Assembly (NCBI GenBank): GCA_016215705.1
Contig: JACRIR010000130.1
Coordinates: forward strand, 1,456-65,455
Length of the DNA stretch: 64,000 nucleotides
Direction of reading: 5' to 3'
From: Candidatus Poribacteria bacterium
GTDB taxonomy: Bacteria; Abyssobacteria; SURF-5
The notes beneath the pieces are model-generated. The model searched no databases. It was not told the origin of the DNA and worked only from the letters and a program-made list of their open reading frames with translations. Position 1 is the stretch's first letter. Every line of letters starts with the position of its first letter. This document shows, piece by piece, positions 1,345-59,222 of this stretch. A program made the translations under genes and the position numbers.

Positions 1345-1400
1345 CGCACATATGAGCTTATTCAGAGACGCCATGCAGCATGGCGTCCCCGAACAAGCGC
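1345..1400. repeat. REP-1 palindromic repeat copy (variant: GCTTATTCAGAGACGCCATGCAGCATGGCGTCCCCGAACAAGCGC)
   Basis: Imperfect palindrome between tsf and rpsB, sharing the arms and CATGC-GCATG centre with 10 other copies in the window. Confidence 0.7.
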
Positions 1401-1467
1401 GGGTTTCTTACGAGAAACGTGTGTCTTCTTGGGGTTGCTCTACAAACCGCGGGAAAGAGGCCGCGCC

Positions 1468-2280
1468 TCATTTGACGTCCGGGTCATTCTCTGGCTCTTC
1501 GGGAATTGCAGATGACGGACGGGTCGATGAAGCGACCGTTTCTTCCGCGCGTGTTTCCGCGCCCAGCTCGGTTCCCGGAACTTCGCGTCCCTCGAGGGCG
1601 CGCGCCTTTGCGTCGAGCACGGCGTCGGCAATGAAAGTAGTGAACAGCTTTATGGAGCGAATAGCGTCGTCGTTACCGGGTATCGGGTAGGTAACGTCGT
1701 CGGGGTCACAGTTTGTGTCAACAACTCCCACAGCGGGGATTTCCAGTTTCTTCGCCTCAGCGACTCCGATTGTTTCCTTTTTCGTGTCGATGATGAAAAT
1801 TGCGGAGGGTAGTTCCCCCATGTCCTTAATGCCAGACAGGTTTCTGTCCAGCTTGCTCTTTTCCTTCATGAGTTTGGCGATTTCCTTCTTCGTCATGTTG
1901 CCGAACTCGCCGTCCTGCTCCATCTTCTCGATCTTCTTGAGGCGGCGAATGCTCTTTTTGATGGTCTCAAAATTGGTCAATGTGCCGCCAAGCCAGCGGT
2001 TGGTCATGTAGAACATGCCGCAGCGCACGGCCTGCTCGCGCACCACTTCCTGGGCCTGCCTCTTCGTGCCTACAAAGAGGACGGTTCCTCCGCCTTCGAC
2101 GGTCTCGCGGATGAAATGATACACGGCATTCACCTGCTGAATAGTTTTCTGCAGGTCGATTATGTACACCCCATTGCGCTCGCCGAAAATGAACTTTTTC
2201 ATTTTCGGGTTCCACCTGCGCGCCTGATGGCCGAAATGCACGCCGGCCTCAAGCAACTGTTTCATGGTCACTATCGCCAT
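1468..2280 (-). CDS. rpsB: 30S ribosomal protein S2
   Basis: [46 protein letters not shown]...VDTNCDPD, the canonical S2 sequence. Start taken at MAIVTM; the N-terminal extension in the ORF track is rejected. Confidence 0.92.
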
Positions 2281-2650
2281 TCGATGAACCTCCCTGATTT
2301 TGGTTTGTCCACGGCTGCTGCGCCCGCGGGCAATCACGCCAAGAGCGTGACACCAGCCCGACAAGTTGTCTCACACCCTGAGACCGCAGAGCCTGTGTTT
2401 TGGTTAACAAATAATATAGCATATCGGGCTCCTTCATGGCAACTTCGGCCTTGACTTTGAAACTGTTCCCTTTGCTTTGTGCTTTTTGGTCGGCAAGTCA
2501 AACCACTGCGCGAGAAAAATCCGGCTTGAAATTCGGCCTGAAAATTGCTATGATAACAAATGATATTGTTAACCGTGGCTGGCACAACAATAATCAAGAC
2601 AATCTGAAGGAAAGACCCCGCTTTATGTGTCTTAAGGGAAAAAGTCTGTC

Positions 2651-3118
2651 TTGGAACTATACATCTTCGCGTGTCAGCACCGTGTCCCCGATGAGTGGCG
2701 TCCCCCGTTCTCGCCAGAGGAAATCAGCGGTCACAGAGTACGCCTGATCCAACTTCCTTGTTCCGCGAAGCTTAGTACCGTCCAGTTGCTCCGACCGTTT
2801 GAAAAAGGGATTGGTGGCATCATTGTATTGGCCTGCAGTGAATCGGGCTGCCGGTCGCTCGAGGGCAGTCGTCGCGCCCGATTGCGTGTTCTCGAGGCCA
2901 ACAATGTTCTCGACGAACTCGGCATGAGCGGCGCCCGCGTGCTCATAAAACAGGCAGACGAGCGAGACAAAATGCCTATTATTGAGGCAGTGAACGAGCT
3001 TTCGGACCGGATAGAAAAGCTTGGGCCAAGCGAGGAAGTCCGAAGAGAGAAGGGTGAAGGCTCAGAGCAGATGGAAAAGCCGGGCTTGAACCCGGCAAAG
3101 GGAAGTATCAAGAAATGA
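2651..3118 (+). CDS. MvhD/FlpD-like (methyl-viologen-reducing hydrogenase delta subunit family) electron-transfer protein
   Basis: Layout ...IQLPCSAKL...GIGGIIVLACSESGCRSLEGS...IEKLG matches the FlpD/MvhD domain pattern. The stop overlaps the metV start, so the two are translationally coupled. Confidence 0.6.
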   Translation: MELYIFACQHRVPDEWRPPFSPEEISGHRVRLIQLPCSAKLSTVQLLRPFEKGIGGIIVLACSESGCRSLEGSRRARLRVLEANNVLDELGMSGARVLIKQADERDKMPIIEAVNELSDRIEKLGPSEEVRREKGEGSEQMEKPGLNPAKGSIKK

Positions 3119-3795
3119 TTATTGCAGAACGTAAACCGTTGGAAGAGATATTGAGCATGATCGGCCAAGCTCGGTCGGTACTGATAGCCGGTTGCGCCAC
3201 GTGTGTGGCCGATTGCATGGCCGGCGGTGAGCGAGAGGTCGGCATCCTGGCGTCGGCCTTGCGCATAGCGCAGAGGCAGAGAAACGGGGATGTTGAGTTT
3301 GTCGAGGCGACCGTCGAGCGCCAGTGCGAACGTGAATTCATTGACCGCATCCGCGAACTGGTTGAGAAAGCCGACATTGTGATCTCGACTGCGTGCGGAA
3401 TCGGAGTGCAGGCAATGGCCGAGCGCTACGGCACAAAGCCCATCTATCCGGGCGTCAACACCAGGTTTCTCGGGCTTCGCGAGGAGGAGGGTTTGTGGAC
3501 CGAACGCTGCGGGGCGTGCGGCGATTGCACGCTCCATTTGACCGGCGGCGTCTGTCCCGTGGCACGTTGCTCGAAGAGCCTGCTCAATGGCCCGTGCGGC
3601 GGCTCGACAAAGGGCAAGTGCGAGGTCTCCGACGAGATTGATTGCGGCTGGCAACTGATTGTGGACCGTCTGAAGGCACTGGGCCAACTTGACCTGTTGG
3701 AAGTAAACATTCCGCCGAAGAACTGGGCCTCCGGTCGCCACGGTGGACCGCGGAAAGTAATAAAGAAAGAGCTGAGAGATGAAAAGCGGAAGTAA
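3115..3795 (+). CDS. metV: Methylene-THF reductase C-terminal-domain (zinc-ribbon) protein MetV
   Basis: Cys-rich motifs AGCATCVADC, CGACGDC, GPCGG...KCEV are typical of the MTHFR_C/MetV family. It lies immediately upstream of metF. Confidence 0.7.
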   Translation: MIIAERKPLEEILSMIGQARSVLIAGCATCVADCMAGGEREVGILASALRIAQRQRNGDVEFVEATVERQCEREFIDRIRELVEKADIVISTACGIGVQAMAERYGTKPIYPGVNTRFLGLREEEGLWTERCGACGDCTLHLTGGVCPVARCSKSLLNGPCGGSTKGKCEVSDEIDCGWQLIVDRLKALGQLDLLEVNIPPKNWASGRHGGPRKVIKKELRDEKRK

Positions 3796-4714
3796 CCTGG
3801 AGAAGGTGTTGCAGGCCGGCCACTTTGCGGTCACCGCCGAATTGGGGCCCCCGATGGGCTGCAACGCCGAAGTGGTTCAAAAGAAAATCCAACTGCTCGG
3901 GGGCGTTGCCGACGCTTATAACGTCACTGACTGCCAGACGGCGGTCGTTCGCATGAGCAGCATCGCGACGTCGATTTTTCTCGTTCAGTCGGGTTTGGAG
4001 CCTGTCATGCAGATGACGTGTCGCGATCGTAACCGGATCGCGATGCAGAGCGATATTCTCGGCGCGGCTGCGCACGGAATCAAGAATTGTCTTTGCATCG
4101 CAGGCGACCACCAGTCGTTCGGTGCAGCGGGCAAGCTCAAGGGGCATCCGGGCGCGAAGAACGTCTACGATGTTGACTCGATCCAACTGGTAGGGATACT
4201 GAAAGGCCTCCGCGACGAAGCGCGGCAGCAGGGAGGCGACCCGCTCGACGGGCGCGCGCCGCTGTTTATCGGAGCGGCTTGGACTCCTCTCGGCGACCCG
4301 GTTGAAATCCGTACAATGCGACTGGCTAAGAAAGTCAACGCAGGCGCCGATTTCGTCCAGACCCAGGCGGTCTTCGATATTGAGCGCTTTTCGGAAGCGA
4401 TGAAGAAAGCGCGCGACCGAGGATTGCACGAGCGCGTGGCTATTCTGGCCGGTATTATTGTGCCGAAGAGCGGGGGAATGCTTGCATATATGAACGAGTC
4501 GGTCCCCGGCGTGACTGTGCCGGAAGGGTTGATTCGCCGCATGAAAGGCGCGTCTGATCCGAAGGCCGAGGGCGTGGCCATCGCGATCGAGCTTGTGCAA
4601 CAGATCAAGCAGATAGAAGGCGTCCGCGGCGTTCATATCCAGGCGATTGAGTGGGAAGCCGCAGTGAGATCGGTCGTTGAAGGCGCAGGGCTTCTGCCCC
4701 GCCCAAAGCTGTAG
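3779..4714 (+). CDS. metF: 5,10-methylenetetrahydrofolate reductase (MetF, acetogen/anaerobe type)
   Basis: VTAELGPP...VTDCQTAVVRMS...QMTCRDRNR...GIKNCLCIAGDH...VQTQAVFD are the MetF TIM-barrel motifs. Confidence 0.85.
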   Translation: MKSGSNLEKVLQAGHFAVTAELGPPMGCNAEVVQKKIQLLGGVADAYNVTDCQTAVVRMSSIATSIFLVQSGLEPVMQMTCRDRNRIAMQSDILGAAAHGIKNCLCIAGDHQSFGAAGKLKGHPGAKNVYDVDSIQLVGILKGLRDEARQQGGDPLDGRAPLFIGAAWTPLGDPVEIRTMRLAKKVNAGADFVQTQAVFDIERFSEAMKKARDRGLHERVAILAGIIVPKSGGMLAYMNESVPGVTVPEGLIRRMKGASDPKAEGVAIAIELVQQIKQIEGVRGVHIQAIEWEAAVRSVVEGAGLLPRPKL

Positions 4715-4750: not shown

Positions 4751-6220
4751 ATGCCAAAGAAATATCATATAACCGCACAGGTGATGCCGCCCCGTTTTGC
4801 GCCTGTGCCCAAATACTCGATGATCGAGAAAGAGGGGTGTCTCGGGTGTCTCCAGTGCGCCAAGCGCGAATGCGTCTATGACGTCTATAAGAATCGGAAA
4901 TTCGATCCCGAGCAGATGATCGATTCTATAGACTATCTCTGCAAGAATTGCCTGCGCTGTATCCAGGGCTGCAAGAACCAGATTATATCAAAGATGTGCA
5001 ATCCTGATTACCAGGCGCTTGGCGACGAATACTGGAAGCCTGCCCTCATCTCGAGCCTGTGGGACCAGGCCACCAGCGGCAAGATTCCGGTCTCCGGCGC
5101 AGGATACCGCGGGCCGTTCTCGGGTCCGGGGTTTGACTCGATGTGGACCGATATGTCGGAGATTGTGCGGCCCACCCGCGACGGGATTCACGGCCGCGAA
5201 TACATCAGCACGTCCGTCGATATTGGCCGCAAGCTTGCGCAACTCGATTTCGGTCCGCGCGGCGAATTGCTCTCCGTAGCCCCACCGCTTGTCGAGATTC
5301 CCGTTCCGTTCATATTTGACAAGCTCCCGTTCGGCGTCATGAACGAGAATGTGCGGACCGGTTTGGTGCGCGCCGCCGAGATAGTTGGAACGATGTTGGT
5401 CATTCCGCAAAGCGACATTGACTGGAAACTGATGGCGCACATTGACAACATAATTCCGTTGATTACGGCTTTGACGCCTATCCGGGAACATGATGCGGCA
5501 TCACGTCCCCAAACAGGCGAGAGTCTTTTGGGAGAAATCATCGCGCGAGCGAGAATGATCGAACTGGAGGATGGCCCGGACGTCGCGAAGCAGATGGCGG
5601 CGGTTAAGGGAATCAATCCGTCGGTGGTGACGTGCATTCGCATGCCTGCGAGCAAGACCGTGGCCGGTCGCGTCGAGGAACTCACCCGTTCGGGCGCGGA
5701 AGTCATTCATATTATTGCCGATTGGCAGGGCGAAGAAACATGCGACCCTGCGGAGACAGGGCATGCTGCGCCCTCTCCCAGATTCATCAAAGAAGTGTTG
5801 CGCGAGGTTCATTTGAACCTGATAGACAAAGCGTTGCGTGATGAGGTCACTATCATAGCCGGCGGCGGCATCGCGATGGCCGAACACGTGGCCAAGGCGA
5901 TCATATGCGGGGCCGATCTCGTTGGCGTAGACATGGCGCTCGAGGTTGCGCTGGAGTGCCGGATGTGCAAGCGATGTCTGCATGGGCTGAGCTGTCCCGT
6001 GACCATTGAGGCGGTTGACTCCGAGTGGGCTGCTCTGCGAATTCGCAACCTGATTTGTTCGTGGCATTCACAGTTGATAGAGGTGCTCGGCGCGATGGGA
6101 ATCCGCGAAGTTCGACGGCTTCGAGGCGAAGTCGGCCGGGCGTTGTTCTTTGAAGATCTTGAAAAGGAGGCGTTCGGGGATGTCAGAATCGCCCCAGACA
6201 CTTACTATTCAACAAGATAG
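4751..6220 (+). CDS. Glutamate-synthase domain-2 (FMN TIM-barrel)-like protein with N-terminal Cys-cluster (ferredoxin-like) region; divergent paralog
   Basis: N-terminus carries CLGCLQCAKREC...CKNCLRCIQGC. C-terminus carries TIIAGGGIAMAEHVAKAIICGADLVGVD...CRMCKRC, resembling the GltS FMN-domain end but lacking the canonical GG(S/T)GA. Confidence 0.6.
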   Translation: MPKKYHITAQVMPPRFAPVPKYSMIEKEGCLGCLQCAKRECVYDVYKNRKFDPEQMIDSIDYLCKNCLRCIQGCKNQIISKMCNPDYQALGDEYWKPALISSLWDQATSGKIPVSGAGYRGPFSGPGFDSMWTDMSEIVRPTRDGIHGREYISTSVDIGRKLAQLDFGPRGELLSVAPPLVEIPVPFIFDKLPFGVMNENVRTGLVRAAEIVGTMLVIPQSDIDWKLMAHIDNIIPLITALTPIREHDAASRPQTGESLLGEIIARARMIELEDGPDVAKQMAAVKGINPSVVTCIRMPASKTVAGRVEELTRSGAEVIHIIADWQGEETCDPAETGHAAPSPRFIKEVLREVHLNLIDKALRDEVTIIAGGGIAMAEHVAKAIICGADLVGVDMALEVALECRMCKRCLHGLSCPVTIEAVDSEWAALRIRNLICSWHSQLIEVLGAMGIREVRRLRGEVGRALFFEDLEKEAFGDVRIAPDTYYSTR

Positions 6221-7694: not shown

Positions 7695-7859
7695 GAAAGG
7701 GGAAAGGAGCAAGGCGAAAGGGGAAGAGCCAAGAAACAGAAAGATTGCTTCGCTCCGCTCGCAATGACCCGATGGGTATGCTGTTTCTCCAATGATTAAT
7801 CCTGCTGCAGACGGGCTGGGCGCTTGAAATACCAGCGAAGGGCTCGGTTAGGAACAAGG

Positions 7860-10580: not shown

Positions 10581-10664
10581 GTCATTCTGCGCGAAACGAA
10601 GAAGCTACTGAAATGCAAAGGCTTCAAGACCGAAGACGAGATTCTTCGCTTCGCTCAGAATGAC
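10581..10664. repeat. MITE-like element with 25-bp terminal inverted repeats (GTCATTCTG[A/C]GCGAAGCGAAGAA[T]C family, here called REP-5)
   Basis: GTCATTCTGCGCGAAACGAAGAAGC ... GATTCTTCGCTTCGCTCAGAATGAC are near-perfect inverted arms. The same motif recurs at 21436, 31276 and 62495, with a partial copy at 26411-26458. Confidence 0.7.
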
Positions 10665-14238: not shown

Positions 14239-14274
14239 ATTTGGGGACACCATGTGGCATGGCGTCCCCGAATT
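14239..14274. repeat. REP-1 palindromic repeat copy
   Basis: ATTTGGGGACACCATGTGGCATGGCGTCCCCGAATT. Confidence 0.75.
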
Positions 14275-27677: not shown

Positions 27678-27720
27678 GCATATTCGAGAACACCATGCGG
27701 CATGGTGTCCCCGAATATGC
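27678..27720. repeat. REP-1 palindromic repeat copy
   Basis: GCATATTCGAGAACACCATGCGGCATGGTGTCCCCGAATATGC between pdhA and pdhB. Confidence 0.75.
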
Positions 27721-27764
27721 GCAAATTCCGGTAGTGACGACTATCAAAGGAGCAGCAGACTAAC

Positions 27765-36753: not shown

Positions 36754-36797
36754 GCTTATTCGGGGACACCATGCGGCATGGCGTCCCCGAATAAGCG
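36754..36797. repeat. REP-1 palindromic repeat copy (consensus-length)
   Basis: GCTTATTCGGGGACACCATGCGGCATGGCGTCCCCGAATAAGCGGG. Confidence 0.8.
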
Positions 36798-42174: not shown

Positions 42175-42199
42175 GTGACCGACCCCGCCGCGCGGGGTC

Positions 42200-42245
42200 G
42201 CTTATTCGGGGACACGATGCCGCATCGTGTCCCCGAATAAGCGCG
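42200..42245. repeat. REP-1 palindromic repeat copy (GATGC centre variant)
   Basis: GCTTATTCGGGGACACGATGCCGCATCGTGTCCCCGAATAAGCGCG between fliR and flhB. Confidence 0.8.
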
Positions 42246-42280: not shown

Positions 42281-43396
42281 ATGCCCGAACCATACGGTGG
42301 CGAGAAGACGGAGCCTGCAACCCCGCGCCGGCGCGAGGAAGTGCGGAAGAAGGGACAAGTTGCGCGGAGCGTCGACCTGACTTCCTCCATCATGCTTCTG
42401 GCGTCGATGCTTGCGCTCTACTTTCTCACGCCCACCTTGATGCGCGAACTGATGGATGTGACTCGCTCATACCTGGCAAATGCCGCCACTACACGGGTCG
42501 ACGTCGATTCCGCGCCCGTACTCCTGATAGGAATGGCGCTGCAGGTGAGCGGTTTTTTCGTTCCCTTCATGCTCATAATTCTTTCCGCCGCTCTAGTGGC
42601 AAACATGGCGCAAGTCGGTTTCAGTCTTAGCGGTTATCCTCTGGTTCCCCGCATCGAGAAGATCAGTCCGGGCGCCGGCTTCAGGCGACTCTTTTCGGCC
42701 CGTTCGTTCGCCGAGCTCGTGAAGTCGATTTTCAAGATTGCCATAGTCGGCCTGATAGCATATTTCACTATCCGGCGCGAGTTCGACCGGCTGATGGGAT
42801 TGATGAACGTGGACGTGTGGGGCGCATGGGTCTTTTTCGGCAGGTTGTCTTTTACGCTCGGTATGAGGGTCGCGATCGCGTTTCTCGTGCTCGGGCTTGC
42901 CGATTACGGATTCCAGCGCTATCAGTTCGAGCAAGACATAAGGATGACGAAAGAGGAAGTTCGTCAAGAGATAAAGGACTTCGAGGGCGACCCGCAAATC
43001 CGTGCGCGCATCCGGCGCGTGCGCAGGCAGATGGCGATAAGCCGCATGATGGCGGAAGTGCCGCGTGCGCACGTCGTGGTGACCAACCCGACATCTCTCG
43101 CGGTTGCTCTTAAGTATGAGATGCGCGAAATGCCGGCGCCTGTGGTTGTTGCAAAAGGGGCGCGTTTGATGGCGGAACGCATTCGGGAGGTGGCAGCCTC
43201 CAATGGCGTGCCCATTGTCGAGAACGTGCCGCTTGCACAAATGCTTTTCAAATCGGTCGAGATAGGGTCGCCGATTCCGGAAAGACTCTACCGCGCGGTC
43301 GCAGAGGTGCTCGCATACGTTTATCAGATTGACACGCGGAGCCGACAACGGTGGGTGTCGCTCGGAGCATCGGCCGCGAGTGGCGCAGCAAAATGA
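42281..43396 (+). CDS. flhB: Flagellar biosynthetic protein FlhB
   Basis: N-terminal GEKTEPATPRRREEVRKKGQVARS and the autocleavage motif NPTSLAVAL (NPTH-like). Confidence 0.9.
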   Translation: MPEPYGGEKTEPATPRRREEVRKKGQVARSVDLTSSIMLLASMLALYFLTPTLMRELMDVTRSYLANAATTRVDVDSAPVLLIGMALQVSGFFVPFMLIILSAALVANMAQVGFSLSGYPLVPRIEKISPGAGFRRLFSARSFAELVKSIFKIAIVGLIAYFTIRREFDRLMGLMNVDVWGAWVFFGRLSFTLGMRVAIAFLVLGLADYGFQRYQFEQDIRMTKEEVRQEIKDFEGDPQIRARIRRVRRQMAISRMMAEVPRAHVVVTNPTSLAVALKYEMREMPAPVVVAKGARLMAERIREVAASNGVPIVENVPLAQMLFKSVEIGSPIPERLYRAVAEVLAYVYQIDTRSRQRWVSLGASAASGAAK

Positions 43397-43440
43397 CGAG
43401 AGCAAGGGGCGAGAGCCCGTGTCACAGTGCGCAAATGGGA

Positions 43441-43484
43441 GCTTATTCGGGGACACCATGCGGCATGGTGTCCCCGAATAAGCG
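43441..43484. repeat. REP-1 palindromic repeat copy (consensus)
   Basis: GCTTATTCGGGGACACCATGCGGCATGGTGTCCCCGAATAAGCG between flhB and flhA. Confidence 0.85.
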
Positions 43485-47737: not shown

Positions 47738-47784
47738 GCGCTTATTCGTGGACACCATGCGGCATGGTGTCCACGAATAAGCGC
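47738..47784. repeat. REP-1 palindromic repeat copy
   Basis: GCGCTTATTCGTGGACACCATGCGGCATGGTGTCCACGAATAAGCGC. Confidence 0.85.
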
Positions 47785-47886
47785 CGTGTCAATATCAGCG
47801 CCGTGTGGTATAATTATGTGTCTATACTTGCAACTTCAAGCGTGAGGGGAAACTGGCGCTCGTTTCCTTATGGGAAGACAAAGTAA

Positions 47887-48870
47887 ATGGCCGACATTCT
47901 AAGTCAGGAAGAAGTCGACGCCCTTCTTGCCGCTGTTTCTGAAGGCGAGGTCCAGGTTGAGAAGCCTGAAGCGCCCACGAAGCGGGCGCACGTCGCCAAA
48001 TATGACTTCAAGAGGCCGGAGCGGGTGTCCAAGGAACAGTTTCGCGGATTCCAAACGCTTTCGGAAGTTTTCGCGCGCGACTTGAGCACCGCGCTCGGCG
48101 GCTCGTTGAGGGCGGTAGCGCGCGTTTCCGTCGTCTCGGTCGACCAGATCACATACGACGAATACGTCCTTTCGATATCGAATCCGACCTCGTACAATGT
48201 GATCCAGCTTCCTCCGATCGAGGGCAACCTGATACTAGAGTTCAATCCCGCGCTCATTTTTCCGATAATAGACCGCCTGCTCGGAGGCCGGGGCGTAGCT
48301 ATCGCAAAGCCGAGAGAGCTTACCGAGATCGAGCAGAAGCTCGTGGCGAAAATCGTAGAGCTTGTGCTGACCACTCTAGTCAGGGCATGGCGGCATCTCG
48401 CCGAGTTCGCGTGGAAGCTTGTTGCCCAGGAGAACGATCCGCAGATCGTACAAATTGTCACGGGAAGCGAGATCGTTCTTGCGCTGAAGTTCGAGCTCAC
48501 GGTCGGTGATATTTCCGGCAGCATGAGCCTGTGTCTGCCCGTTGTCGCGATCGAACCGATGCTCGACAAGATCGGCGCCGAATACACGTTTTACGGCGCT
48601 CGGCCGCAGCATCGAGGCCCGCAGACGGCAAGGATGCTCGAGGAAATCGTAATGCGCACAAGAACACAGGTCGAGGCGTATATGGCCGGGTCGGTCATAG
48701 CCGTAAGTGACCTCCTGAAGCTGCAAGTGGGCGACATAGTCAGGCTCGACAACAATGTCATCGACGAGAGCTGCATCACGCTTGCCATTAACGGGATGCC
48801 GAAATTCAGCGCGAAACAGGGGCGCGTCGGAAACAGGCAAGCGATTCAAGTGGTGAACCGACTCGAGTGA
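47887..48870 (+). CDS. fliM: Flagellar motor switch protein FliM
   Basis: N-terminal CheY-P binding LSQEEVDALL, a middle CheC-like domain, and a C-terminal SpoA domain (LQVGDIVRLDNN...). Confidence 0.8.
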   Translation: MADILSQEEVDALLAAVSEGEVQVEKPEAPTKRAHVAKYDFKRPERVSKEQFRGFQTLSEVFARDLSTALGGSLRAVARVSVVSVDQITYDEYVLSISNPTSYNVIQLPPIEGNLILEFNPALIFPIIDRLLGGRGVAIAKPRELTEIEQKLVAKIVELVLTTLVRAWRHLAEFAWKLVAQENDPQIVQIVTGSEIVLALKFELTVGDISGSMSLCLPVVAIEPMLDKIGAEYTFYGARPQHRGPQTARMLEEIVMRTRTQVEAYMAGSVIAVSDLLKLQVGDIVRLDNNVIDESCITLAINGMPKFSAKQGRVGNRQAIQVVNRLE

Positions 48871-48898
48871 GGCCGGCAGGTTCGAGAGGTAATTTGTA

Positions 48899-49867
48899 AT
48901 GGATGCGAGCAATCATGGGCAGGAAACGCCCGAGAACGCAAATGCGATGTCGAGCCTTAACAGCGCGTTCGCCGGGGCCCTGGCGGCCATTCTTGAGTCT
49001 GCCGCAGCGGCGTTTCCGATTACTGAGGAGTCCGACATACGGTTTTCAGTCGCGCTTGTCGGCGAGATGGGGAAAGAAGAGTTCTTCAATCTGGCCCGCG
49101 AATTGCCTGTCGTTGCCGAAATCGCCCTTGACAAGGATATCGGCGATAGGGCCGCCATGTTGACGGATATTCCCACCGCCGCGGCGCTTGCAGGTTTTGT
49201 CTCGGGGGGAGAACCGACAGGGAAAGACAGACTGAGCGACGCCGATATCATCTCGCTCCACGAGGCATTGAATCCGATCCTCGATGCGCTTTCATCCGCG
49301 TGCGAGGAAGCGACGGGAAGGCCGTTCGGTTCGATAGAGAGCGTCGAGGTTCCGGATGCCGCCGCCCTCCGGCGCAAAATCGAGGAGTTGCCCGATTCGC
49401 TCTATCGTGCGACTGCATCGGTCAGTGTCGGCAGCGTTGCAAATGGGCGGATCGCCATCATTCTGCCTCTCAACTTGGCGGATGCCTTGGCCGAGGCGGC
49501 CTCGAGGAGCCGGAAGCCGGAAGAGCATCCATACGAACATATCGAACCCAAGGGAAAAGAAGATGTGAGCGTCCGCGCTCAAGGTCAGGCGACAAGGGAG
49601 CCCTCAATGGAGAACATCGATCTCATCCTGGACATTCAGCTTAGACTTTCCGCCCGGTTAGGACAAGTGGAAATGCCCATCGCCGAGATTCTCGACCTTG
49701 CTCCCGGCTCGGTCATCGATATCGACCGGTTTGTGGATGAGCCTGTCGAGCTGGTTGTGAACGATCACCTTATAGCGAGGGGCGAAATAGTCGTCGTCCA
49801 GGAGAACTTCGGCGTCAAGATAACTGAAATAGTCAGCCCGAAGGAACGAATTAAGAGTCTGAGATAG
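48899..49867 (+). CDS. fliN: Flagellar motor switch protein FliN/FliY-like (C-terminal SpoA domain)
   Basis: C-terminal LDIQLRLSARLGQVEMPIAEILDLAPGSVIDIDRFVDEPVELVVNDHLIARGEIVVV is the FliN/SpoA fold; the N-terminal extension is like FliY. Confidence 0.7.
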   Translation: MDASNHGQETPENANAMSSLNSAFAGALAAILESAAAAFPITEESDIRFSVALVGEMGKEEFFNLARELPVVAEIALDKDIGDRAAMLTDIPTAAALAGFVSGGEPTGKDRLSDADIISLHEALNPILDALSSACEEATGRPFGSIESVEVPDAAALRRKIEELPDSLYRATASVSVGSVANGRIAIILPLNLADALAEAASRSRKPEEHPYEHIEPKGKEDVSVRAQGQATREPSMENIDLILDIQLRLSARLGQVEMPIAEILDLAPGSVIDIDRFVDEPVELVVNDHLIARGEIVVVQENFGVKITEIVSPKERIKSLR

Positions 49868-49952
49868 TCAAGAAGCGGGAAAGTATGCCGTTGACCTCCG
49901 CGCCTGCCGGATTTGGTTCCGCACGCATTGCCCTTATCCCCCGGATTTCCCT

Positions 49953-49987
49953 TTTTGGGGACACTATGAGACATAGTGTCACCAATG
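49953..49987. repeat. Degenerate REP-1 copy
   Basis: TTTTTGGGGACACTATGAGACATAGTGTCACCAAT. Confidence 0.5.
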
Positions 49988-50069
49988 AAGGAATCCTGAA
50001 TGCCTGGCGTTTCAGAAGCAGAGCGAAGCAATCGTGGGAATACGGGCGATACTTCGGGTGTGACCTGGC

Positions 50070-50858
50070 ATGAAACAAGACGCTGCAACGGCAAAAGACC
50101 TCGCCGGACTTTGGAGAGATTATAAGCGAAACGGCAGCGCCCAGGCCAAAGACGCAATCATTGTCCAGTACCTTGGCCTGGTCAAGTTTATCGCCGGCAG
50201 AGTGGCGATGAATTCACCTCCTCATGTGGAGGAAGACGATCTCATCGGCTGGGGCGTTCTGGGATTGCTGGACGCCGTCGAAAAGTTCGACCTCGAGCAG
50301 AATGTAAGTTTCGAGACATATGCGTCCGTGAGGATTCGCGGCGCTATCATCGATCAGATACGTTCTCTTGATTGGGCTCCTCGCTCGCTCAGGCAGAAGG
50401 CGCGTCACATGGAACAGGCTACGGCAAAACTGAGGGAAAGCCTGGGGCGTGAGCCGACCGGAGGAGAGTTGGCTTCCGAAATGACAATTACTGAGGACGA
50501 GCTGTTTGGCCTCATAACAGAGATTCATGGCGCTTATGTGCTCTCACTCGACAGCGTCGTTTCCGGTGAGAGCGACGACGAGGTGACCCTCGAGGAGGTT
50601 ACAAGCGACTTGAAGAGCCCTTCTCCGGAAAGCTCGGCCCGCCGGAAAGAAGCGGAACAATGTCTCGCAACTGCAATAGCAAGACTGCCTGAGAACGAGC
50701 GCTATGTCATAACGCTTTATTACTACGACGAACTCACGCTCAAAGAGATCGGGAAAGTCATGGGATTGACGGAATCGCGCATTTGCCAGATTCATCGTGA
50801 AGTCATACGAAAACTGAAACAGACCCTGAAAGCGAGCTCCCATGATGCAATCTATTGA
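50070..50858 (+). CDS. fliA: Flagellar sigma factor FliA (sigma-28)
   Basis: Sigma-70 regions 2-4: YLGLVKFIAGR, IRSLDWAPRS, and the region 4 HTH LTLKEIGKVMGLTESRICQIHREV. Confidence 0.88.
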   Translation: MKQDAATAKDLAGLWRDYKRNGSAQAKDAIIVQYLGLVKFIAGRVAMNSPPHVEEDDLIGWGVLGLLDAVEKFDLEQNVSFETYASVRIRGAIIDQIRSLDWAPRSLRQKARHMEQATAKLRESLGREPTGGELASEMTITEDELFGLITEIHGAYVLSLDSVVSGESDDEVTLEEVTSDLKSPSPESSARRKEAEQCLATAIARLPENERYVITLYYYDELTLKEIGKVMGLTESRICQIHREVIRKLKQTLKASSHDAIY

Positions 50859-51378
50859 AATCCTTCTGATACTCGCAGGCGCTCTCTTGCTCGTTCTATC
50901 AGTTTATCTGGAAAGAAAACATCGAGCTGAGACGACGCCCCCGCCGCCAAAACAGGCGGCCTTCGGCCTAACTGCCGATAACGCGCTCAAACTCCAGGCG
51001 TCGTTGACCGAGTTGCTTCGTGAACTCCAGACGTTGGGACAGGATGTTGCGGTAGACCTGGAAGGGAAGCTGGGCGAACTAAAGGAATTGCTCCATCTCG
51101 CCGATAAGAAATTGGAGGAGTTGTCGGAGGCTGAGGATAAATGCGCGCCGCGGCAGTCCGAACAACCGCAAAAGGACAAACAGACTCCTCTGGCGATGAA
51201 GCCCGGCCCGGAACTGCAGATCACTGTGGAGGATGACTACCCTCCTCAGCCCACGAACCGCTACCGGGAGATATATCGAATGGCGGATGAGGGACTCTCC
51301 ATAGACGAAATCGCTCGACGCGCGCAATTGGGCAAGGGCGAAATCCAGCTCATTCTAAGCCTCCGCAAGAAAGACTGA
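50842..51378 (+). CDS. Hypothetical protein (N-terminal TM helix, coiled-coil, C-terminal HTH-like segment) in flagellar cluster
   Basis: No recognisable family. Overlaps the fliA stop. C-terminal YREIYRMADEGLSIDEIARRAQLGKGEI resembles a small HTH. Confidence 0.4.
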   Translation: MMQSIEILLILAGALLLVLSVYLERKHRAETTPPPPKQAAFGLTADNALKLQASLTELLRELQTLGQDVAVDLEGKLGELKELLHLADKKLEELSEAEDKCAPRQSEQPQKDKQTPLAMKPGPELQITVEDDYPPQPTNRYREIYRMADEGLSIDEIARRAQLGKGEIQLILSLRKKD

Positions 51379-51383
51379 GCAGT

Positions 51384-52940
51384 ATGTCTGTCCGCTTCAC
51401 ATCCTCGCTTCCGCTTCACACCACCGAAATGTCCGCCTCTAAGGGTCTCGCTCAACTCTCACACGGCGAGCTGGCGCTCGGAAAAGTCTCGAGCGTGTCA
51501 CCCGACGGCGTCGCAGTCATCAGCTTCCCTGAGTTTGAGGCACAGACCCAAACTGACTCCTCTCTGAAGCCGGGAGAACAGGTCTTCGCCGCTGTGCAAA
51601 AGACTCGTGACCAGACGCTCTTGAACCTGTTGCCCAATATCGAGGAGGGCGAGATTCTAAACGGCGCCGCCGGTGCGGCGCATCGAGAGTCGCTTTTTCG
51701 GTTCGGTGAGCGCGAATTCAAGATGCGTCTCCCCGCCGGTGAGGCCGCCATGCCGGCGGCAGGCGCACCCATTCGAGCACAGCTTCAGGTGATTGCAGGC
51801 AAGCCGTATCTGCAAATGCTCCCGGAGAGTTTGTCGGGGGATGTCATCGAAGGAATTGTCGCAACGGTGAAAAACGACGGCAGCGCGCTGCTGGACGTGG
51901 GCGGCACACCTGTTCTGGCAAAGGCGGCGGGAATCCTCAAAGCGGGAGAGATTATCGGCGTAACGTTGCGGCAGATTGGTGACAAGTTGACCCTGGAAAT
52001 CCTCCCCGGTTTCTCGGCGCCTTCATCGGTAGTCGGTACGGAAGCCTTGTCTGACGCCGGCGGAAGCGATCCCCTTTTGAAACTGTTGGCAGCGCCTCAG
52101 TATACGCGACTACTCCAGGCGCTTGCTTCAGGCGAGCTCAAGATCGGCGACACCGGCCGGGAACTCGCATTCCTTCTGCAACAAGCGCTCAACTCATCCA
52201 TGATCGACAGGGCCGGATGGTTACCCACGCTCGCGCGAGTTCTCGATGTGATTCTCCTTAGTCCGATGCACGACGGCTTCATCGAGCAGCTTAGCGCTGC
52301 GCTCAGAGACTCGGGCATTTTCTTCGAGTCTCGCGCACTTCAAGCGGCTGCGACGCAGAACATCGACCCGACTCTCTCCGGAGACCTGAAACCGGCTCTT
52401 CTCCTCGCGAATCAGAAGCTTTCCGAGATGATTCACGCCGCGCCGGGAGGAGCAGCGGAACCGCCTCCTCTCCTGGACGAGATCGCCGCGAGAGTCGGCC
52501 GGCTCCTTGACCTCGTCACGGCGGAGCAATTCCAGAATGTAAGGCTTTCGCCGACTGGCCAAATATACGTTCAACTTCCGTTTGCCGAGGGGGCCGACCT
52601 CGACCGCGTCGAAATTCGTATCTCGCCCCACGGGAAAAAAGAACAGAAAATCGATCCAAGGAATGTGTCTATCACGCTTGCGATAACGACATCAAGGCTG
52701 GGTCGCATAAAAGTTTCGGTTTCGATAGTGGAGGGGCAAGTAAGTTGCCAGTTCAGGGCGAGCCGAAAATCAGTGGCCGAACTGTTGGAAACCCACGCCG
52801 ACATGCTCCGACTGGGCCTCGAGAAACTGGACTATCGTGTCGCTCATATCGGCTGCCTTATAAGCAATAACGAAAAGGATTTCACGGTTTTCGATAACTC
52901 CGCAACGATTCCACACAGCGGACTCGATGTGCGCATATGA
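51384..52940 (+). CDS. fliK: Flagellar hook-length control protein FliK-like
   Basis: Long Ala/Leu/Pro/Gln-rich low-complexity protein. Its C-terminal roughly 100 aa resemble the FliK C-terminal (Flg_hook) domain, and it sits in the flagellar context upstream of a FlhB-C-like gene. Confidence 0.45.
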   Translation: MSVRFTSSLPLHTTEMSASKGLAQLSHGELALGKVSSVSPDGVAVISFPEFEAQTQTDSSLKPGEQVFAAVQKTRDQTLLNLLPNIEEGEILNGAAGAAHRESLFRFGEREFKMRLPAGEAAMPAAGAPIRAQLQVIAGKPYLQMLPESLSGDVIEGIVATVKNDGSALLDVGGTPVLAKAAGILKAGEIIGVTLRQIGDKLTLEILPGFSAPSSVVGTEALSDAGGSDPLLKLLAAPQYTRLLQALASGELKIGDTGRELAFLLQQALNSSMIDRAGWLPTLARVLDVILLSPMHDGFIEQLSAALRDSGIFFESRALQAAATQNIDPTLSGDLKPALLLANQKLSEMIHAAPGGAAEPPPLLDEIAARVGRLLDLVTAEQFQNVRLSPTGQIYVQLPFAEGADLDRVEIRISPHGKKEQKIDPRNVSITLAITTSRLGRIKVSVSIVEGQVSCQFRASRKSVAELLETHADMLRLGLEKLDYRVAHIGCLISNNEKDFTVFDNSATIPHSGLDVRI

Positions 52941-53251
52941 ATGACGAAGAAAAAGATACCCGCACTCCGTCCCACGGTGGCGGGGATTTCCGTCAGCGAG
53001 CGGTTGCCTTGCGTTACAACCGGGATAAAGAGCATGCTCCGCGAATTGTCGCGAAGGGGAGCGGCCAAATTGCCGAACGCATAATCGAAGTCGCACGCGC
53101 GCATGGTATTACGATTTATGAAGACAAGGATTTGATCGAACTCCTCTCAAAACTGGAATTGTACGAAGTGATACCCCCTCAGTTGTATCAGGTTATCGCA
53201 GAAATACTTGCCTTCGTTTACCGCCTGAACAAGAAAGCCTTCGAGGTCTAG
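52937..53251 (+). CDS. FlhB C-terminal-domain-like protein (EscU/YscU/FlhB-C family, YlqH-like)
   Basis: 104 aa, AVALRYNRDKEHAPRIVAKGSGQIAERIIEVARAHGITIYEDKDLIELL, matching the FlhB/EscU C-terminal autocleavage-domain family. Confidence 0.7.
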   Translation: MNDEEKDTRTPSHGGGDFRQRAVALRYNRDKEHAPRIVAKGSGQIAERIIEVARAHGITIYEDKDLIELLSKLELYEVIPPQLYQVIAEILAFVYRLNKKAFEV

Positions 53252-53261
53252 TGTCATGTCA

Positions 53262-53322
53262 CACTTGAGCCTGCAAGTGTGAGCGTATGGTTTTGTAGGG
53301 GCACGGCGCGCCGTGCCCCTAC
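53262..53322 (+). terminator. Tandem hairpins (terminator-like) including a REP-4 copy
   Basis: CACACTTGagcctgCAAGTGTG, then TTTTGTAGGGGCACGGCGCGCCGTGCCCCTACGGG. Confidence 0.5.
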
Positions 53323-54343: not shown

Positions 54344-54386
54344 GCTAATTTGGGGACACCATGCGGCATGGTGTCCCCAAATTAGC
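54344..54386. repeat. REP-1 palindromic repeat copy
   Basis: GCTAATTTGGGGACACCATGCGGCATGGTGTCCCCAAATTAGC. Confidence 0.85.
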
Positions 54387-55821: not shown

Positions 55822-56018
55822 AACTCACCTCCGTGTTTTCAAGCCGACAGCTATCCGTGGGACTTTGTGGGGAGACAACCAAGCGTCGGGCGGAATTATA
55901 TCAGAGGGCGGAGACTATTTCAAAGGCGAGATTTGGTGTCTGCAGATTGCGCAGATTCGCACAGCGCGGCATGGCCGCAGCCAAACAGAGAGTCTCGGGC
56001 ACGATGAATCGCCCCTCA

Positions 56019-56060
56019 GAAAATCGGGGACACGATGCGACATCGTGTCCCCGATTTTCT
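56019..56060. repeat. REP-1 palindromic repeat copy (GATGC variant)
   Basis: GAAAATCGGGGACACGATGCGACATCGTGTCCCCGATTTTCT. Confidence 0.8.
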
Positions 56061-56073: not shown

Positions 56074-56100
56074 CAAGGGCGCAATTCATTGCGCCCTGCG
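56074..56100. repeat. REP-4 hairpin copy
   Basis: CAAGGGCGCAATTCATTGCGCCCTGCG. Confidence 0.6.
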
Positions 56101-56105: not shown

Positions 56106-57368
56106 TCACCTGAAAAACACAAACGTAATAACGACAAAGATCGGAATGAGGATACCGCCGGACCAGAGCATGTAGCCGAAGAAAGAAGGGACTTTCACTT
56201 TCTGGTGTTCGCAGATGACTTTGACCATGAAGTTCGGGCCGTTGCCGATATAAGTGTTGGCGCCCATGAAGACGGCGCCGACGGAAATGGCCTCGAGATA
56301 TCGCGCGGGCATCCCAACAATCTCCGCTGGCAAGCCGACGTCCACAGTTAGCCCCTTTGCCAGGCTGAAAAACGTGAGGTACGTCGGAGTATTGTCGAGG
56401 AATGAGGAAAGACCGCCCGTTACCCAAAAGAAGTGCCACGGCTTGGTTATCCCGAACTCCGCGCCCCTGGCCTCTAGGATAAGCAGGACGGGCACCATGG
56501 TTATAAAAATGCCGGCGAACAGGACCGCCACTTCGATGATCGGAGCATAATTGAATTCATTGTCCTCACGGATGCCTTTTGGAGTGAACACGAGGGAAAG
56601 GATCGACATTGCGATCATCGTGCCTTCTCTCATCGGGGTCCGGAGCAGAATGACGCTTAACATTATTCCTATAATAAAAACGACGTTTATCTTTCCGCGC
56701 ATGCCTATGGGCGTGACCATCGTGACGTCCCACGTCTTCACTTCTTCGGATTCCTTGTTCCAAAAGTGGCGGTCCGTAAGATAGAAGACAAGCAACACAA
56801 TTCCTGTTCCGATCAACCATTGCGGAATGAGCCGCAAAGTCCAAAAAAACGGGACCCCTCTCAGGTAGCCCATGAACAGAGGCGGATCCCCGATTGGTGT
56901 AAGAAGTCCGCCGATATTGCACACGATAAAGATAAAGAAAATCGGGATATGATATACATAGTTCCTTTCACTATTTGTGCGCAGAACGGGCCTGATAAGA
57001 AGCATCGCAGCGCCGGTCGTGCCGAACAGATTTGCGATGACGGCCCCGATGGCGAGAAAAATCGTGTTATTCCTCGGCGTCGCCTGAATGTCGCCACTCA
57101 GGAATATCCCGCCAGAAATCACAAAGAGCGAGCCAAGCAGCACAATAAACGAGATGAACTCTTCGAGCGAATGAATAATGGGATGGAAATCGTTGTGATA
57201 GCCAAACAGAATAAGCACGGGTACTGACAAGATTCCCGCAATGATAGCCTTATTGCGATTGCTTTCCCAGAAATGCTCCAAAGCCAATGGGAACACCGCG
57301 ATGGCAAGCAACAAAGCAACGAAAAAACCCATCGACCAGAATGGCAGAGTCTTTCCTAATTCTTCCAT
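56106..57368 (-). CDS. Ion-transporter superfamily permease (ArsB/NhaD-like putative Na+/H+ antiporter)
   Basis: 420 aa with about 11-12 TM segments; the overall pattern resembles NhaD/ArsB-family antiporters. Confidence 0.6.
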   Translation of the reverse strand: MEELGKTLPFWSMGFFVALLLAIAVFPLALEHFWESNRNKAIIAGILSVPVLILFGYHNDFHPIIHSLEEFISFIVLLGSLFVISGGIFLSGDIQATPRNNTIFLAIGAVIANLFGTTGAAMLLIRPVLRTNSERNYVYHIPIFFIFIVCNIGGLLTPIGDPPLFMGYLRGVPFFWTLRLIPQWLIGTGIVLLVFYLTDRHFWNKESEEVKTWDVTMVTPIGMRGKINVVFIIGIMLSVILLRTPMREGTMIAMSILSLVFTPKGIREDNEFNYAPIIEVAVLFAGIFITMVPVLLILEARGAEFGITKPWHFFWVTGGLSSFLDNTPTYLTFFSLAKGLTVDVGLPAEIVGMPARYLEAISVGAVFMGANTYIGNGPNFMVKVICEHQKVKVPSFFGYMLWSGGILIPIFVVITFVFFR

Positions 57369-57940
57369 GATTTTTCTCTTTCCAATCTTGTTTTACTTTG
57401 TCGGGTGCGCGTACCATTTGTTCGACAACAGAGGCATGAAATGCGAGGGCATGGGGTGACTCATAGCCCACATTCTAACAGAGGCCCCAAGCGAATGTCA
57501 AACACAACATATTGGGGTTAATAATAATTTCGCCCCTTTATGTTGGTGTGACAGGGCATCGGGCATTTCTATGAGATTGTCTTACGGAAGGGTAAATGCA
57601 GGCGGGTCAATAAGAAGATTGTGGAAGCTTTGCGCTCATGCGTTGTCCTTCTTCCATTTCTCTATGAATAGGCGAGCCTCGGAATAACAGGAGGGGCAAT
57701 AAGTGTGCGTGACTTGTTTGGTTATCAGTTCAGCCTTGATCGGCTTTCTCCAGCCCTGCGGGCTCCGCACTTTCTGGCAGCTACAACATTGCACTGTCAT
57801 TTCTCTCAACTCCTTTGCGCGAACTCGATCCGACGTTGCTTCGGTGTCAGTGTTCCCGGATGCGCTTCATTCCGGGTTGCGTGTGGTCTTTCTGGAGGAA
57901 TTATCGGCAGGCTGGGTACGGAACTTTAGCCAGCGCGCAG

Positions 57941-59002
57941 TCAGGAGTTTAGGGCAGGAGGCGTCTCGGACTCAATTCGCGCGAACGCTTCGCTGAACTC
58001 ATCAAACAGATTCTTCTTGTACAGATCGGGAAGAAAACCGGCTCTGACACCATTGAGGCACAGAGTCTTGATTTCCTGCCAGTCGAGGCCGAGCATCTCA
58101 CTGGAGACTTTGTATTCATCGGTCAATGAAGAGCCGAACATGTCGGGGTCATCGCTGTTCAGGGTGATCAGCAATCCGCGGCGCAGATAATCGGGAAGCG
58201 GGTGGTCCGCGTATGAGCGCGTCGCGCCCGTCGCCACATTGCTGGTCGGACACATGTCGACCGCGATGTTGTGGATGCGCATATATTCGAGCAGTTGCTC
58301 ATCCGCGCGCGCGCCGAGGCCATGTCCTATGCGCTCGGCCCCGAGGGACGTGACTGCGCCCCACACGCTCGCCGATCCGACAACCTCACCCGCATGCGCG
58401 ACGACGTGCAAACCCTCCTTGCGCGCAAACTCGAATTGTTTAACGAATATCTCCGGCGAATAGTGCAGTTCGTCGCCTCCCAGCCCCACGGCGATAACCC
58501 CGCGCGCCTGATTCTCGAGCGCCTCGCGCACCGTCTGCCAGGCGTGTTCATGGCCAAACTGTCGCCCCACGTCGAATATGAAGCGAGCTTCTATTCCTTT
58601 CTCGCGGGCTACTCTTGTCGCGCCGGCATCGATCCCGCGCATCACCGTCTCCATGGAAATCCCGTATAGTCTGGACATCGTCGGAGCTATCGTTATTTCC
58701 GCGTACCGCACGTTTTGGGAGTGCAGATTCTCGAGCACGTCAACACAAGCTTCCTCGAAGTCCTCGACCTCTCGCAGACATTTGCATCGCAGCCGATATG
58801 AATCGAGGAAGTTGATGAGATGTCCGAAACGGTGGCGCCCTGTTTCCGGGTTGATCACCAGCCCGGCGACATCGATCGAGTTTCTTTGAGCGAGTCGCTC
58901 GATCGTCCGCGAAGGGATCGATCCCTCAAGATGCACGTGGAGCTCGACTTTCGGCATTTGCTCTATGGCGCGAAAAAGGTTGTCTTGCCGGCCTGCTTCC
59001 AT
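57941..59002 (-). CDS. add: Adenosine deaminase
   Basis: KVELHVHLEGS metal-binding motif, GHG, SLNSDDP and the catalytic HAGE region. Start taken at MEAGRQ; the ORF-track N-terminus runs into the REP-1 element. Confidence 0.85.
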   Translation of the reverse strand: MEAGRQDNLFRAIEQMPKVELHVHLEGSIPSRTIERLAQRNSIDVAGLVINPETGRHRFGHLINFLDSYRLRCKCLREVEDFEEACVDVLENLHSQNVRYAEITIAPTMSRLYGISMETVMRGIDAGATRVAREKGIEARFIFDVGRQFGHEHAWQTVREALENQARGVIAVGLGGDELHYSPEIFVKQFEFARKEGLHVVAHAGEVVGSASVWGAVTSLGAERIGHGLGARADEQLLEYMRIHNIAVDMCPTSNVATGATRSYADHPLPDYLRRGLLITLNSDDPDMFGSSLTDEYKVSSEMLGLDWQEIKTLCLNGVRAGFLPDLYKKNLFDEFSEAFARIESETPPALNS

Positions 59003-59034
59003 TTGTCTTCCTCCTGAGAAACTGGCGACTGTCG

Positions 59035-59081
59035 CCCCTAATTCGGGGACACGATGCGGCATCGTGTCCCCGAATTAGGGG
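59035..59081. repeat. REP-1 palindromic repeat copy, followed by a partial second copy to ~59104
   Basis: CCCCTAATTCGGGGACACGATGCGGCATCGTGTCCCCGAATTAGGGG, then GGCATCGTTTCCCTGAATAAGTG. Confidence 0.85.
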
Positions 59082-59222
59082 GGCATCGTTTCCCTGAATA
59101 AGTGTCCATCCGCCGTTGCGTAATTCATGCCAAACATGCAGAACACAGATTCATTGCAATCACAATCCTGATAATAATATAATGAATCAACTCTTGTGAA
59201 TGCAACATGGAAGGAGATGAGG

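Follow-up and report, generated by a model that had tools for sequence, protein, structure and literature searches.

What kind of element is the short palindrome that recurs along contig JACRIR010000130.1 of a bacterium labelled Candidatus Poribacteria, how is it copied and does it serve its host? The stretch considered here, referred to throughout as the window, comprises 64,000 nucleotides (positions 1,456 to 65,455 of the contig), and an initial annotation, made from its letters alone, named the palindrome REP-1 and likened it to the repetitive extragenic palindromic (REP) elements. REP-1 is a genuine and abundant palindromic repeat, as suggested there, and with rather better than even confidence we regard it as a selfish, non-autonomous family that resembles both REPs and the Rickettsia palindromic elements (RPEs) and has a 27-nt core as its minimal unit. 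We find it less likely that REP-1 primarily serves its host, as an RNA regulator or through binding of a protein to the DNA, because copies also reside inside genes, show no orientation bias, are polymorphic between near-identical genomes and occupy unrelated contexts in different phyla.

The invariant part of REP-1 is the 27-nt core GGGGACAC[C/G]ATGC[G/C]GCAT[G/C]GTGTCCCC, composed of one central base flanked by two 13-nt arms, in which one or two internal base pairs switch jointly (C..G, G..C, T..A or CT..AG). In the lineage of the window, 8 bp of outer arm on each side, variable yet complementary (e.g. GCTTATTC, GCTAATTT, GAAAATC and CCCCTAATTC), take the element to 43–47 nt; amplified subfamilies are told apart by the arms CTTAATTC, GCTTATTC and GAAAATC, and some copies are fused to lineage-specific tails or additional right half-arms. 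Conservation peaks at the centre and falls off outward. The 13-nt arms are not hairpins on their own, and the unit is a single palindrome, not the doublet known as a REPIN (REP doublet forming hairpins); among 527 arms counted, 460 belong to full palindromes and 67 (∼13%) are solo. The bases flanking the core differ by copy and lineage, and no conserved GTAG-type tetranucleotide, of the kind that adjoins the hairpin and is used by group 2 REP-associated tyrosine transposases (RAYTs), is found beside REP-1.

Pairing within the element has been maintained while its sequence has changed. When 92 distinct copies, taken from the window and from the nearest relative available, are aligned and a 22-bp stem with a 3-nt loop is counted, standard pairs occupy 91.8% of cells, compared with 37–45% when the partner is slid by 1–3 columns. 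Fifteen of the 22 pairs are changed on both sides, and 289 doubly changed cells are observed against 110 ± 8 in shuffles; for instance, 58 copies have G-C at core columns 19/29 whereas 33 have C-G, and columns 20/28 switch from A-U to U-A in seven. As the aligned copies are paralogues, part of this covariation signal stems from amplified subfamilies and not from independent compensation. Folded as RNA, intergenic copies reach −30 to −41 kcal/mol (z −6 to −9). No Rfam covariance model matches at gathering score anywhere in the window, and a tRNA scan of the window yields nothing.

The core is stop-free (no TAA, TAG or TGA) in all six frames and its 27 nt amount to nine codons, and copies can therefore also persist in frame within genes. 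Owing to its palindromic symmetry, the core yields one set of three peptide frames, GDTM[R/P]H[G/R]VP, GH[H/D]AA[W/S]CP and GT[P/R]C[G/R][M/I]VS, in both orientations, and only the residue that includes the central base differs. It had been stated that both strands encode FGDTMRHGVPE; this holds for one strand, whereas the other reads FGDTMPHGVPE, the central base being asymmetric. In other genomes, long open reading frames (ORFs) run through many REP-1 copies, and these were accepted as lying in real genes where Pfam domains flank or span the insert. The insert separates the acylphosphatase domain from the zinc fingers in HypF, the catalytic from the anticodon-binding domain in the cysteinyl-tRNA synthetase CysS, and GDE_N from GDE_C in a glycogen debranching enzyme, which has inserts at two further sites as well; in the hybrid-cluster protein Hcp, a single Prismane domain spans it. 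Further genic copies accepted in this way are found in a Fer4+CCG protein, a TauE protein, a HemN-like radical SAM enzyme, a MiaB/RimO-like enzyme and a SurA-like chaperone. The window itself holds one such copy, at 5484, inside gene 4751–6220, which is glutamate-synthase-related (Pfam Glu_synthase). Its product is identical to the NCBI protein HZA56_10920, from a metagenome-assembled genome (MAG) labelled Candidatus Poribacteria, and the next homologues, from Candidatus Hydrogenedentota and Candidatus Abyssobacteria, share 72–75% identity. Here, the core's second frame contributes a 12-residue insertion, TPIREHDAASRP, which is absent from all 11 aligned homologues, and the hairpin is much weaker than in intergenic copies (−18 kcal/mol, z −2.6). 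Together with the many genic copies in other genomes, this in-frame copy refutes the earlier statement that REP-1 always lies between genes.

REP-1 is not a local artefact, since many further genomes and metagenomes carry the core. The exact 27-mer is present in at least 93 stretches of species-representative genomes, and the exact core in at least 120 metagenome contigs. The closest available genome is the unclassified MAG CAYVDS, the sister genome in what follows, whose coding DNA, where shared, matches the window at ∼78% nucleotide identity; it accounts for about 60 stretches among the matches listed, and its sampled loci hold at least 85 REP-1 copies. Both core variants are found in CAYVDS and in the window, which bears the Poribacteria label. 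The CACCATG variant alone occurs in CAYVQZ, an unclassified MAG with 11 stretches among the matches listed, and in several MAGs labelled Elusimicrobia, Elusimicrobiales or Elusimicrobiaceae, and the CACGATG variant alone in several labelled Syntrophaceae, Syntrophales, Syntrophobacterales or Deltaproteobacteria. Complementary outer arms are present in the window, CAYVDS and CAZEBC and partially in CAYVQZ. Flanks in the Elusimicrobia MAGs pair no more than by chance, and the unit there is therefore the bare core. Going by the submitters' taxonomic labels and the very different G+C contents (52–68%), the identical core spans at least three distant phyla; in the NCBI taxonomy, Abyssobacteria are nested within Hydrogenedentota. 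Only one contig of a viral collection carries REP-1. This contig (IMGVR_UViG_3300046652_000019, our locus L096) is phage-like, with capsid-type genes, and has one G-variant core at 4652–4678, in the gap between two structural genes, past the first one's stop codon and ahead of the second one's ribosome-binding site.

Placement relative to genes was also counted in CAYVDS, where the figures rest on crude longest-ORF gene calls. Genes were called to the left and right of 58 copies, which divide into 31 in tandem, 20 in convergent and 7 in divergent spacers; ten further copies fall within called ORFs. This preference for gene 3′ ends is typical of REP elements, and REP-1 copies mostly stand between a few and about 100 nt past a stop codon. 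In the same genome, neither the orientation of the copies relative to transcription (sense-strand central base C in 23, G in 13) nor the position of T-rich tails (downstream only in 13, upstream only in 9) is significantly biased. The lack of a significant orientation bias counts against a strictly strand-specific RNA role, though a hairpin forms either way.

The REP-1 family is dynamic. When flanks are compared over 216 repeat-bearing loci, repeat content differs at many orthologous sites, and copy number differs even between genomes with 98–100% identical flanks. The debranching-enzyme orthologues of two deltaproteobacterial MAGs, which share 88% protein identity, differ at all three repeat sites: one is filled in a single genome and another holds one copy as opposed to three tandem units, every length difference being a multiple of three. 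Arrays grow by the addition of full copies and right half-arms. In the allele comparisons L066 vs L089, L117/L212 vs L129 and L192 vs L070/L133, the allele that lacks a full copy carries either the short sequence TGCGGATATCG, which resembles the centre of the element, or 15–17 unrelated bases. At other loci, i.e. L005/L076 (Elusimicrobia) and L035/L048 and L027/L049 (Syntrophales), the exact core is kept and the flanking spacer has diverged. A sequencing or adapter artefact was considered as a source of REP-1 and rejected, given that copies occupy orthologous positions in independent assemblies and stand in frame in conserved genes.

Twelve copies, 11 intergenic and one genic, are found in the 64 kb of the window (Table 1), against none expected by chance (0 matches in dinucleotide-preserving shuffles). 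All 11 positions given in the initial annotation (1345/1356, 14239, 27678, 36754, 42200, 43441, 47738, 49953, 54344, 56019 and 59035) carry a copy. A search with its core, allowing up to three mismatches, returns nine sites and one with the full 43-mer four; the diverged copies at 1345/1356 and 49953 were recognised on direct reading at these positions, copy 5484–5510 by a position-weighted scan and the half-copy 59082–59102 by a single-arm scan. The description of REP-1 as a perfect 43-bp palindrome is true of five of the 11 (42200, 43441, 47738, 54344 and 59035) and not of the remaining six, which have one (36754) to four mismatches (range for 36754, 1356, 14243, 27678, 49957 and 56018). With flanking genes assigned by Pfam, ten of the intergenic copies lie in tandem spacers shortly past stop codons, six of them inside operons, and one in a convergent spacer; the earlier observation that several copies are intercistronic is thus borne out. 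From the upstream stop to the palindrome, the distance is 6–140 nt, counting ORF 36326–36616 (about 137 nt from copy 36754), and from the end of the palindrome to the downstream start, where this is clear, about 30–100 nt.

Table 1. REP-1 copies and a diversity-generating retroelement in the 64-kb window (positions are those of the window)
Feature	Position	Description and context	Predicted fold
Copy 1	1356..1398 (core 1364–1390)	imperfect; between rpsB and tsf (both − strand)	−34.3 kcal/mol
Copy 2	14243..14269	core with 2 mismatches; between an arsR-family gene and a P-type ATPase gene	
Copy 3	27678..27720	8 nt past the stop of E1 alpha, 44 nt ahead of the E1 beta start	−30.2 kcal/mol
Copy 4	36754..36796	downstream of the retroelement's template repeat, 36 nt ahead of a DsrE-like ORF	
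Copy 5	42200..42242	G variant, perfect; between fliR and flhB	
Copy 6	43441..43483	matches the consensus exactly, C variant; flhB/flhA spacer	−37.9 kcal/mol, z −7.9
Copy 7	47738..47784	perfect 47-nt palindrome; between an flhG-like gene (stop 6 nt before) and fliM	−41.1 kcal/mol
Copy 8	49957..49983	core degenerate, with T/A at the covarying pair; fliN on one side, fliA on the other	−21.8 kcal/mol
Copy 9	54344..54386	perfect, with GCTAATTT and AAATTAGC as outer arms; in a convergent spacer, where a hexapeptide-transferase gene ends 30 nt away	
Copy 10	56018..56060	G variant with arms AGAAAATC and GATTTTCT; flanked on both sides by − strand genes	
Copy 11	59035..59081	perfect 47-nt palindrome, arms CCCCTAATTC/GAATTAGGGG; between − strand genes	−44 kcal/mol
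Solo right half-copy	59082..59102	GGCATCGTTTCCCTGAATAAG; abuts copy 11	
Copy 12	5484..5510	degenerate core GGGAACATGATGCGGCATCACGTCCCC, missed in the initial annotation; in frame inside gene 4751–6220	
Diversity-generating retroelement	31561–36400	target gene of 1089 residues	
Variable repeat	34706–34822		
Avd-like ORF	34861–35232		
Reverse transcriptase	35229–36323	Pfam RVT_1	
Template repeat	36284–36400	18 of 19 template/variable differences at template adenines	

Several copies deserve further description. E1 alpha and E1 beta, on either side of copy 3, are subunits of a 2-oxoacid dehydrogenase by Pfam. Copy 7 carries a compensated G-to-T/C-to-A pair. On the − strand, copy 11 is followed by the tail GCGACAGTCGCCAGTTTCTCAGGAGG, which reaches into the next gene's ribosome-binding site, and the ‘1.5-copy’ arrangement that it forms with the adjoining right half is seen again in related genomes. 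As had been noted, the repeat gives rise to spurious ORF starts: the − strand ORFs 700–1374, 57941–59062 and 42593–43459 each begin at an ATG inside the core. The repeat also fragments assemblies, since short-read contigs begin at its copies; two Logan contigs of the same organism (L094 and L095, from SRR12113407), which match window positions 47749–53275 and 27693–28907, start exactly at the copies at 47748 and 27686, respectively. That the copies are not simply terminators is likewise upheld, most having no proper U-tract and some being located inside operons and genes. A lax terminator scan flags four of the seven copies in 40–60 kb, two of these on the antisense strand only, and all flagged copies have interrupted T-rich tails, e.g. 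GTCTTTGT and GCCTTTCT, instead of a U-tract.

The window contains other structured and repeated sequences. A separate G+C-rich hairpin, GACCCCGCCGCGCGGGGTC, occupies 42181–42199, between the fliR stop codon and copy 5, and the two adjoining stems have a combined fold of −53.8 kcal/mol. A second repeat family, consisting of GTAG and the hairpin GGGCGCAATTCATTGCGCCC, is represented at 56077 (next to copy 10), 61811, 61860 and 62593, and its inverted pair at about 61805–61880 resembles a classical REPIN. Two further repeats are shared with the sister genome, the inverted repeat GTCATTCTGCGCGAAACGAAGAA...TTCTTCGCTTCGCTCAGAATGAC and the short motif GATTGCTTCGCTCCGCTCGCAATGAC, both of which are covered by window positions 10581–10664 and about 7740–7776; pieces of the former, AAGCGAAGAATCTC, recur in the tails on CAYVDS REP-1 copies. 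A link between REP-1 and the diversity-generating retroelement was entertained and dropped, the copy in question lying ∼350 nt past the template repeat and not beside the variable repeat.

Which enzyme might mobilise REP-1 was addressed in the 216 repeat-bearing loci (∼1.3 Mb), which were queried with sequences of IS200 and RayT as well as with a profile derived from 120 RayT-like proteins. A single RAYT-like ORF was found, at 4917–5531 of locus L075 (CAYVDS010000026.1, from the sister genome); it passes the Pfam model Y1_Tnp (29 bits) and scores 61 bits with the NCBIfam model REP_Tyr_transpos, below the cutoff of 80. The gene directly follows a sirtuin-like gene, and homologues of its product are named RayT by JGI. 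Between its HUH and Tyr regions, it has an in-frame GTAG-type palindrome pair, GTAGGGGCGAACCTTGTGTTCGCCC ... GGGCGAACACAAGGTTCGCCCCTAC. No near-identical relatives of this protein with Elusimicrobia or Syntrophales labels were found, and thus no sign of co-transfer with the repeat. Clustering of all ORFs near the copies revealed no transposase, and the recurrent families (sigma-54 regulators, ABC ATPases, acyl-CoA dehydrogenases and aminotransferases) are ordinary paralogues. As a test for a REPtron, ORFs bracketed by two copies were considered, and all are housekeeping genes (porphobilinogen deaminase, NifB/X-like proteins, MFS and MscS, and flhB in the window).

In the model that we favour, new copies of the selfish palindrome would arise through an enzyme acting in trans, with specificity for the hairpin or the palindrome, and the element would have crossed phylum boundaries horizontally. 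By analogy with REP–RAYT systems (PMC3116915, PMC5581495), the leading candidate would be a single-strand-specific HUH/Y1 enzyme of RAYT-like type. In operon transcripts, the 20–22 bp stem (−30 to −41 kcal/mol) could form a barrier to 3′-exonucleases or a site for a double-strand RNase; folding energies make a role in mRNA stability plausible, and the long stems are probably exonuclease barriers or substrates of double-strand-specific RNases. An altered relative stability of the flanking cistrons would then be a side effect and not the raison d'être of the element. Several findings weigh against this model. The RAYT partner that had been suggested was not found beside any copy, as no Y1/RAYT gene flanked by REP-1 is present in the ∼1.3 Mb of repeat-bearing DNA or in the window. 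The nearest REP-1 copies lie 1.2 and 2.3 kb from the L075 gene and do not flank it, the palindrome within that gene fits the second repeat family better than REP-1, and the closest homologue of its product (55%) is from Abyssobacteria and looks vertically inherited. Filled alleles are not clean insertions; they stand in place of 15–17 unrelated nt in the empty allele, and filled and empty sites with 98–100% identical flanks show no target-site duplication. Such local replacement without target-site duplication is atypical for transposition, whether cut-and-paste or copy-and-paste. Finally, the exact core at the orthologous sites L005/L076 and L035/L048 may reflect selection for a host function. 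We also entertain, as a tentative and somewhat unlikely extension, that REP-1 may be among the smallest bacterial mobile units, copied without the known REP-associated transposases, moving between phyla (Elusimicrobia, Syntrophales and a Hydrogenedentota/Abyssobacteria-like lineage) and routinely colonising coding sequence, including that of essential genes such as cysS.

Other explanations have been weighed against the selfish-repeat model. In a classical REP/REPIN–RAYT system, as in Escherichia and Pseudomonas, a single-copy RAYT encoded elsewhere in the genome would disperse the repeat. We consider this unlikely: REP-1 is indeed a short, high-copy palindrome at gene 3′ ends and the sister genome does hold a RAYT-like gene, but the L075 gene has no REP-1 flanks and bears a GTAG-type palindrome that matches the second family, REP-1 itself has no conserved GTAG-like flank, is a single palindrome and not a hairpin doublet, and is intragenic in many copies, no REP-1-associated RAYT is present in the 216 loci, and the core is identical across phyla, while such systems are described as mostly vertically inherited (PMC5581495; bioRxiv 10.1101/2022.05.22.493013). 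An RNA element selected by the host, with the hairpin kept for mRNA decay, processing or partial termination and hence, for example, for the stoichiometry of flagellar export or E1 proteins, would account for the six of 11 intergenic copies that lie within operons just past stop codons, for the very stable stems and their covarying pairing, for the weak T-rich tail after several copies and for the core retained at orthologous sites. We nevertheless judge it quite unlikely, as the same core is found in three phyla in unrelated gene contexts, many copies stand in frame in unrelated housekeeping genes, copy number varies among near-identical genomes and there is no significant orientation bias relative to transcription.

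Spread without any transposase has also been considered, in which nuclease-resistant hairpin fragments or ectopic copies are captured at breaks, or copied into them, in the course of repair or replication via template switching, slippage or end joining; this would yield insertions with local replacement, half-copies and tandem arrays. The 15–17 nt replaced at filled sites with no target-site duplication, the solo arms (∼13% of all arms), the tandem right half-arms that build up beside full copies and the failure to find a transposase in the repeat-bearing loci all agree with it, and the half-copies and irregular junctions leave room for copying through repair or replication. As the sole cause of the family, however, we rate it very unlikely, because exact identity of 27 nt over hundreds of sites in several phyla is hard to explain by capture alone, and so are amplified subfamilies with distinct outer arms. 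Known DNA uptake sequences are single asymmetric 9–12-mers that occur in either orientation, and the least probable reading, which we regard as highly improbable, is that REP-1 is likewise a DNA-level recognition site, resembling an uptake sequence or bound by a nucleoid protein or gyrase, whose abundance results from biased uptake or binding. Its high density, including in coding regions, its occurrence in both orientations and its perfect dyad, such as a dimeric DNA-binding protein would recognise, would fit. On the other hand, the unit is a full palindrome with solo arms in the minority, the outer arms covary to keep pairing, which is relevant to a hairpin and not to a duplex, and a spread over unrelated phyla speaks against a species-specific uptake tag.

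If the selfish-repeat model is correct, palindromes of the Rickettsia type that invade coding genes extend to free-living bacteria of several phyla, in the form of an element that is five times shorter and is orientation- and frame-neutral by construction. The cross-phylum identity of the core, which contrasts with the vertical inheritance described for REPIN–RAYT systems, would then point to recognition machinery that spreads horizontally, and, should REP-1 be a small mobile unit, it would generally supply the proteins of uncultured anaerobes with short peptide insertions. As regards annotation, gene calls acquire false start codons and N-terminal extensions through REP-1, and annotated proteins 9–20-residue insertions. 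Its very stable hairpins within the flagellar export and E1 dehydrogenase operons may affect expression.

How does REP-1 compare with known systems? A literature search with the core sequence turned up no paper containing it in the library searched, and the family appears undescribed, though REP, RPE and MITE-like repeats are known (MITE standing for miniature inverted-repeat transposable element); what is unusual is that a core conserved to the base in several phyla is combined with a stop-free length of nine codons, with in-frame insertions that are frequent and reach even an essential aminoacyl-tRNA synthetase, and with no associated RAYT in the loci searched. With Rho-independent terminators and SPRITE repeats, REP-1 shares a G+C-rich stem-loop downstream of genes; unlike Rho-independent terminators, most copies have no U-tract right after the stem, and copies are found in read-through operons and coding regions. 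Derivatives of IS200/IS605 insertion sequences offer another comparison, as do MITEs. MITEs and palindrome-associated derivatives (PMC10969869) are, like REP-1, non-autonomous, structured, multi-copy and polymorphic between strains. In contrast to MITEs, REP-1 is most conserved at its centre and not at its termini and shows no target-site duplication, and no parent insertion sequence with ends matching REP-1 was found in the repeat-bearing loci searched.

The REP elements and bacterial interspersed mosaic elements (BIMEs) of Enterobacteria and Pseudomonas, together with REPINs, are also comparable (PMC3116915, PMC3337134, PMC5581495). Like these, REP-1 is a short, high-copy hairpin palindrome concentrated past stop codons and in intercistronic spacers, forms subfamilies as well as clusters and mosaics with other motifs, breaks short-read assemblies and inflates ORF calls. 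It differs in lacking a conserved GTAG-type flank, in being one near-perfect 27-nt palindrome where a REPIN is a doublet of imperfect hairpins, and in having many copies in genes. Characteristic of such systems is a single-copy RAYT gene that the repeats accompany or flank (PMC5581495), whereas no REP-1-flanked RAYT gene is found among the 216 loci, and the mostly vertical descent described for REPIN–RAYT systems contrasts with a core that is, by the submitters' labels, identical across phyla. In their relation to coding sequence, REP-1 copies behave as described for the RPEs, which are about 150 bp in length, are confined to Rickettsia and are found between genes as well as in frame in unrelated housekeeping genes, to whose products they add a conserved peptide (PMC10969869). 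REP-1 shares with them a palindrome that resides both in intergenic spacers and in frame in unrelated protein-coding genes; unlike them, it has a core of only 27 nt, encodes one set of three peptide frames in either direction of insertion, apart from a varying centre residue, and is found in several phyla of free-living anaerobes.

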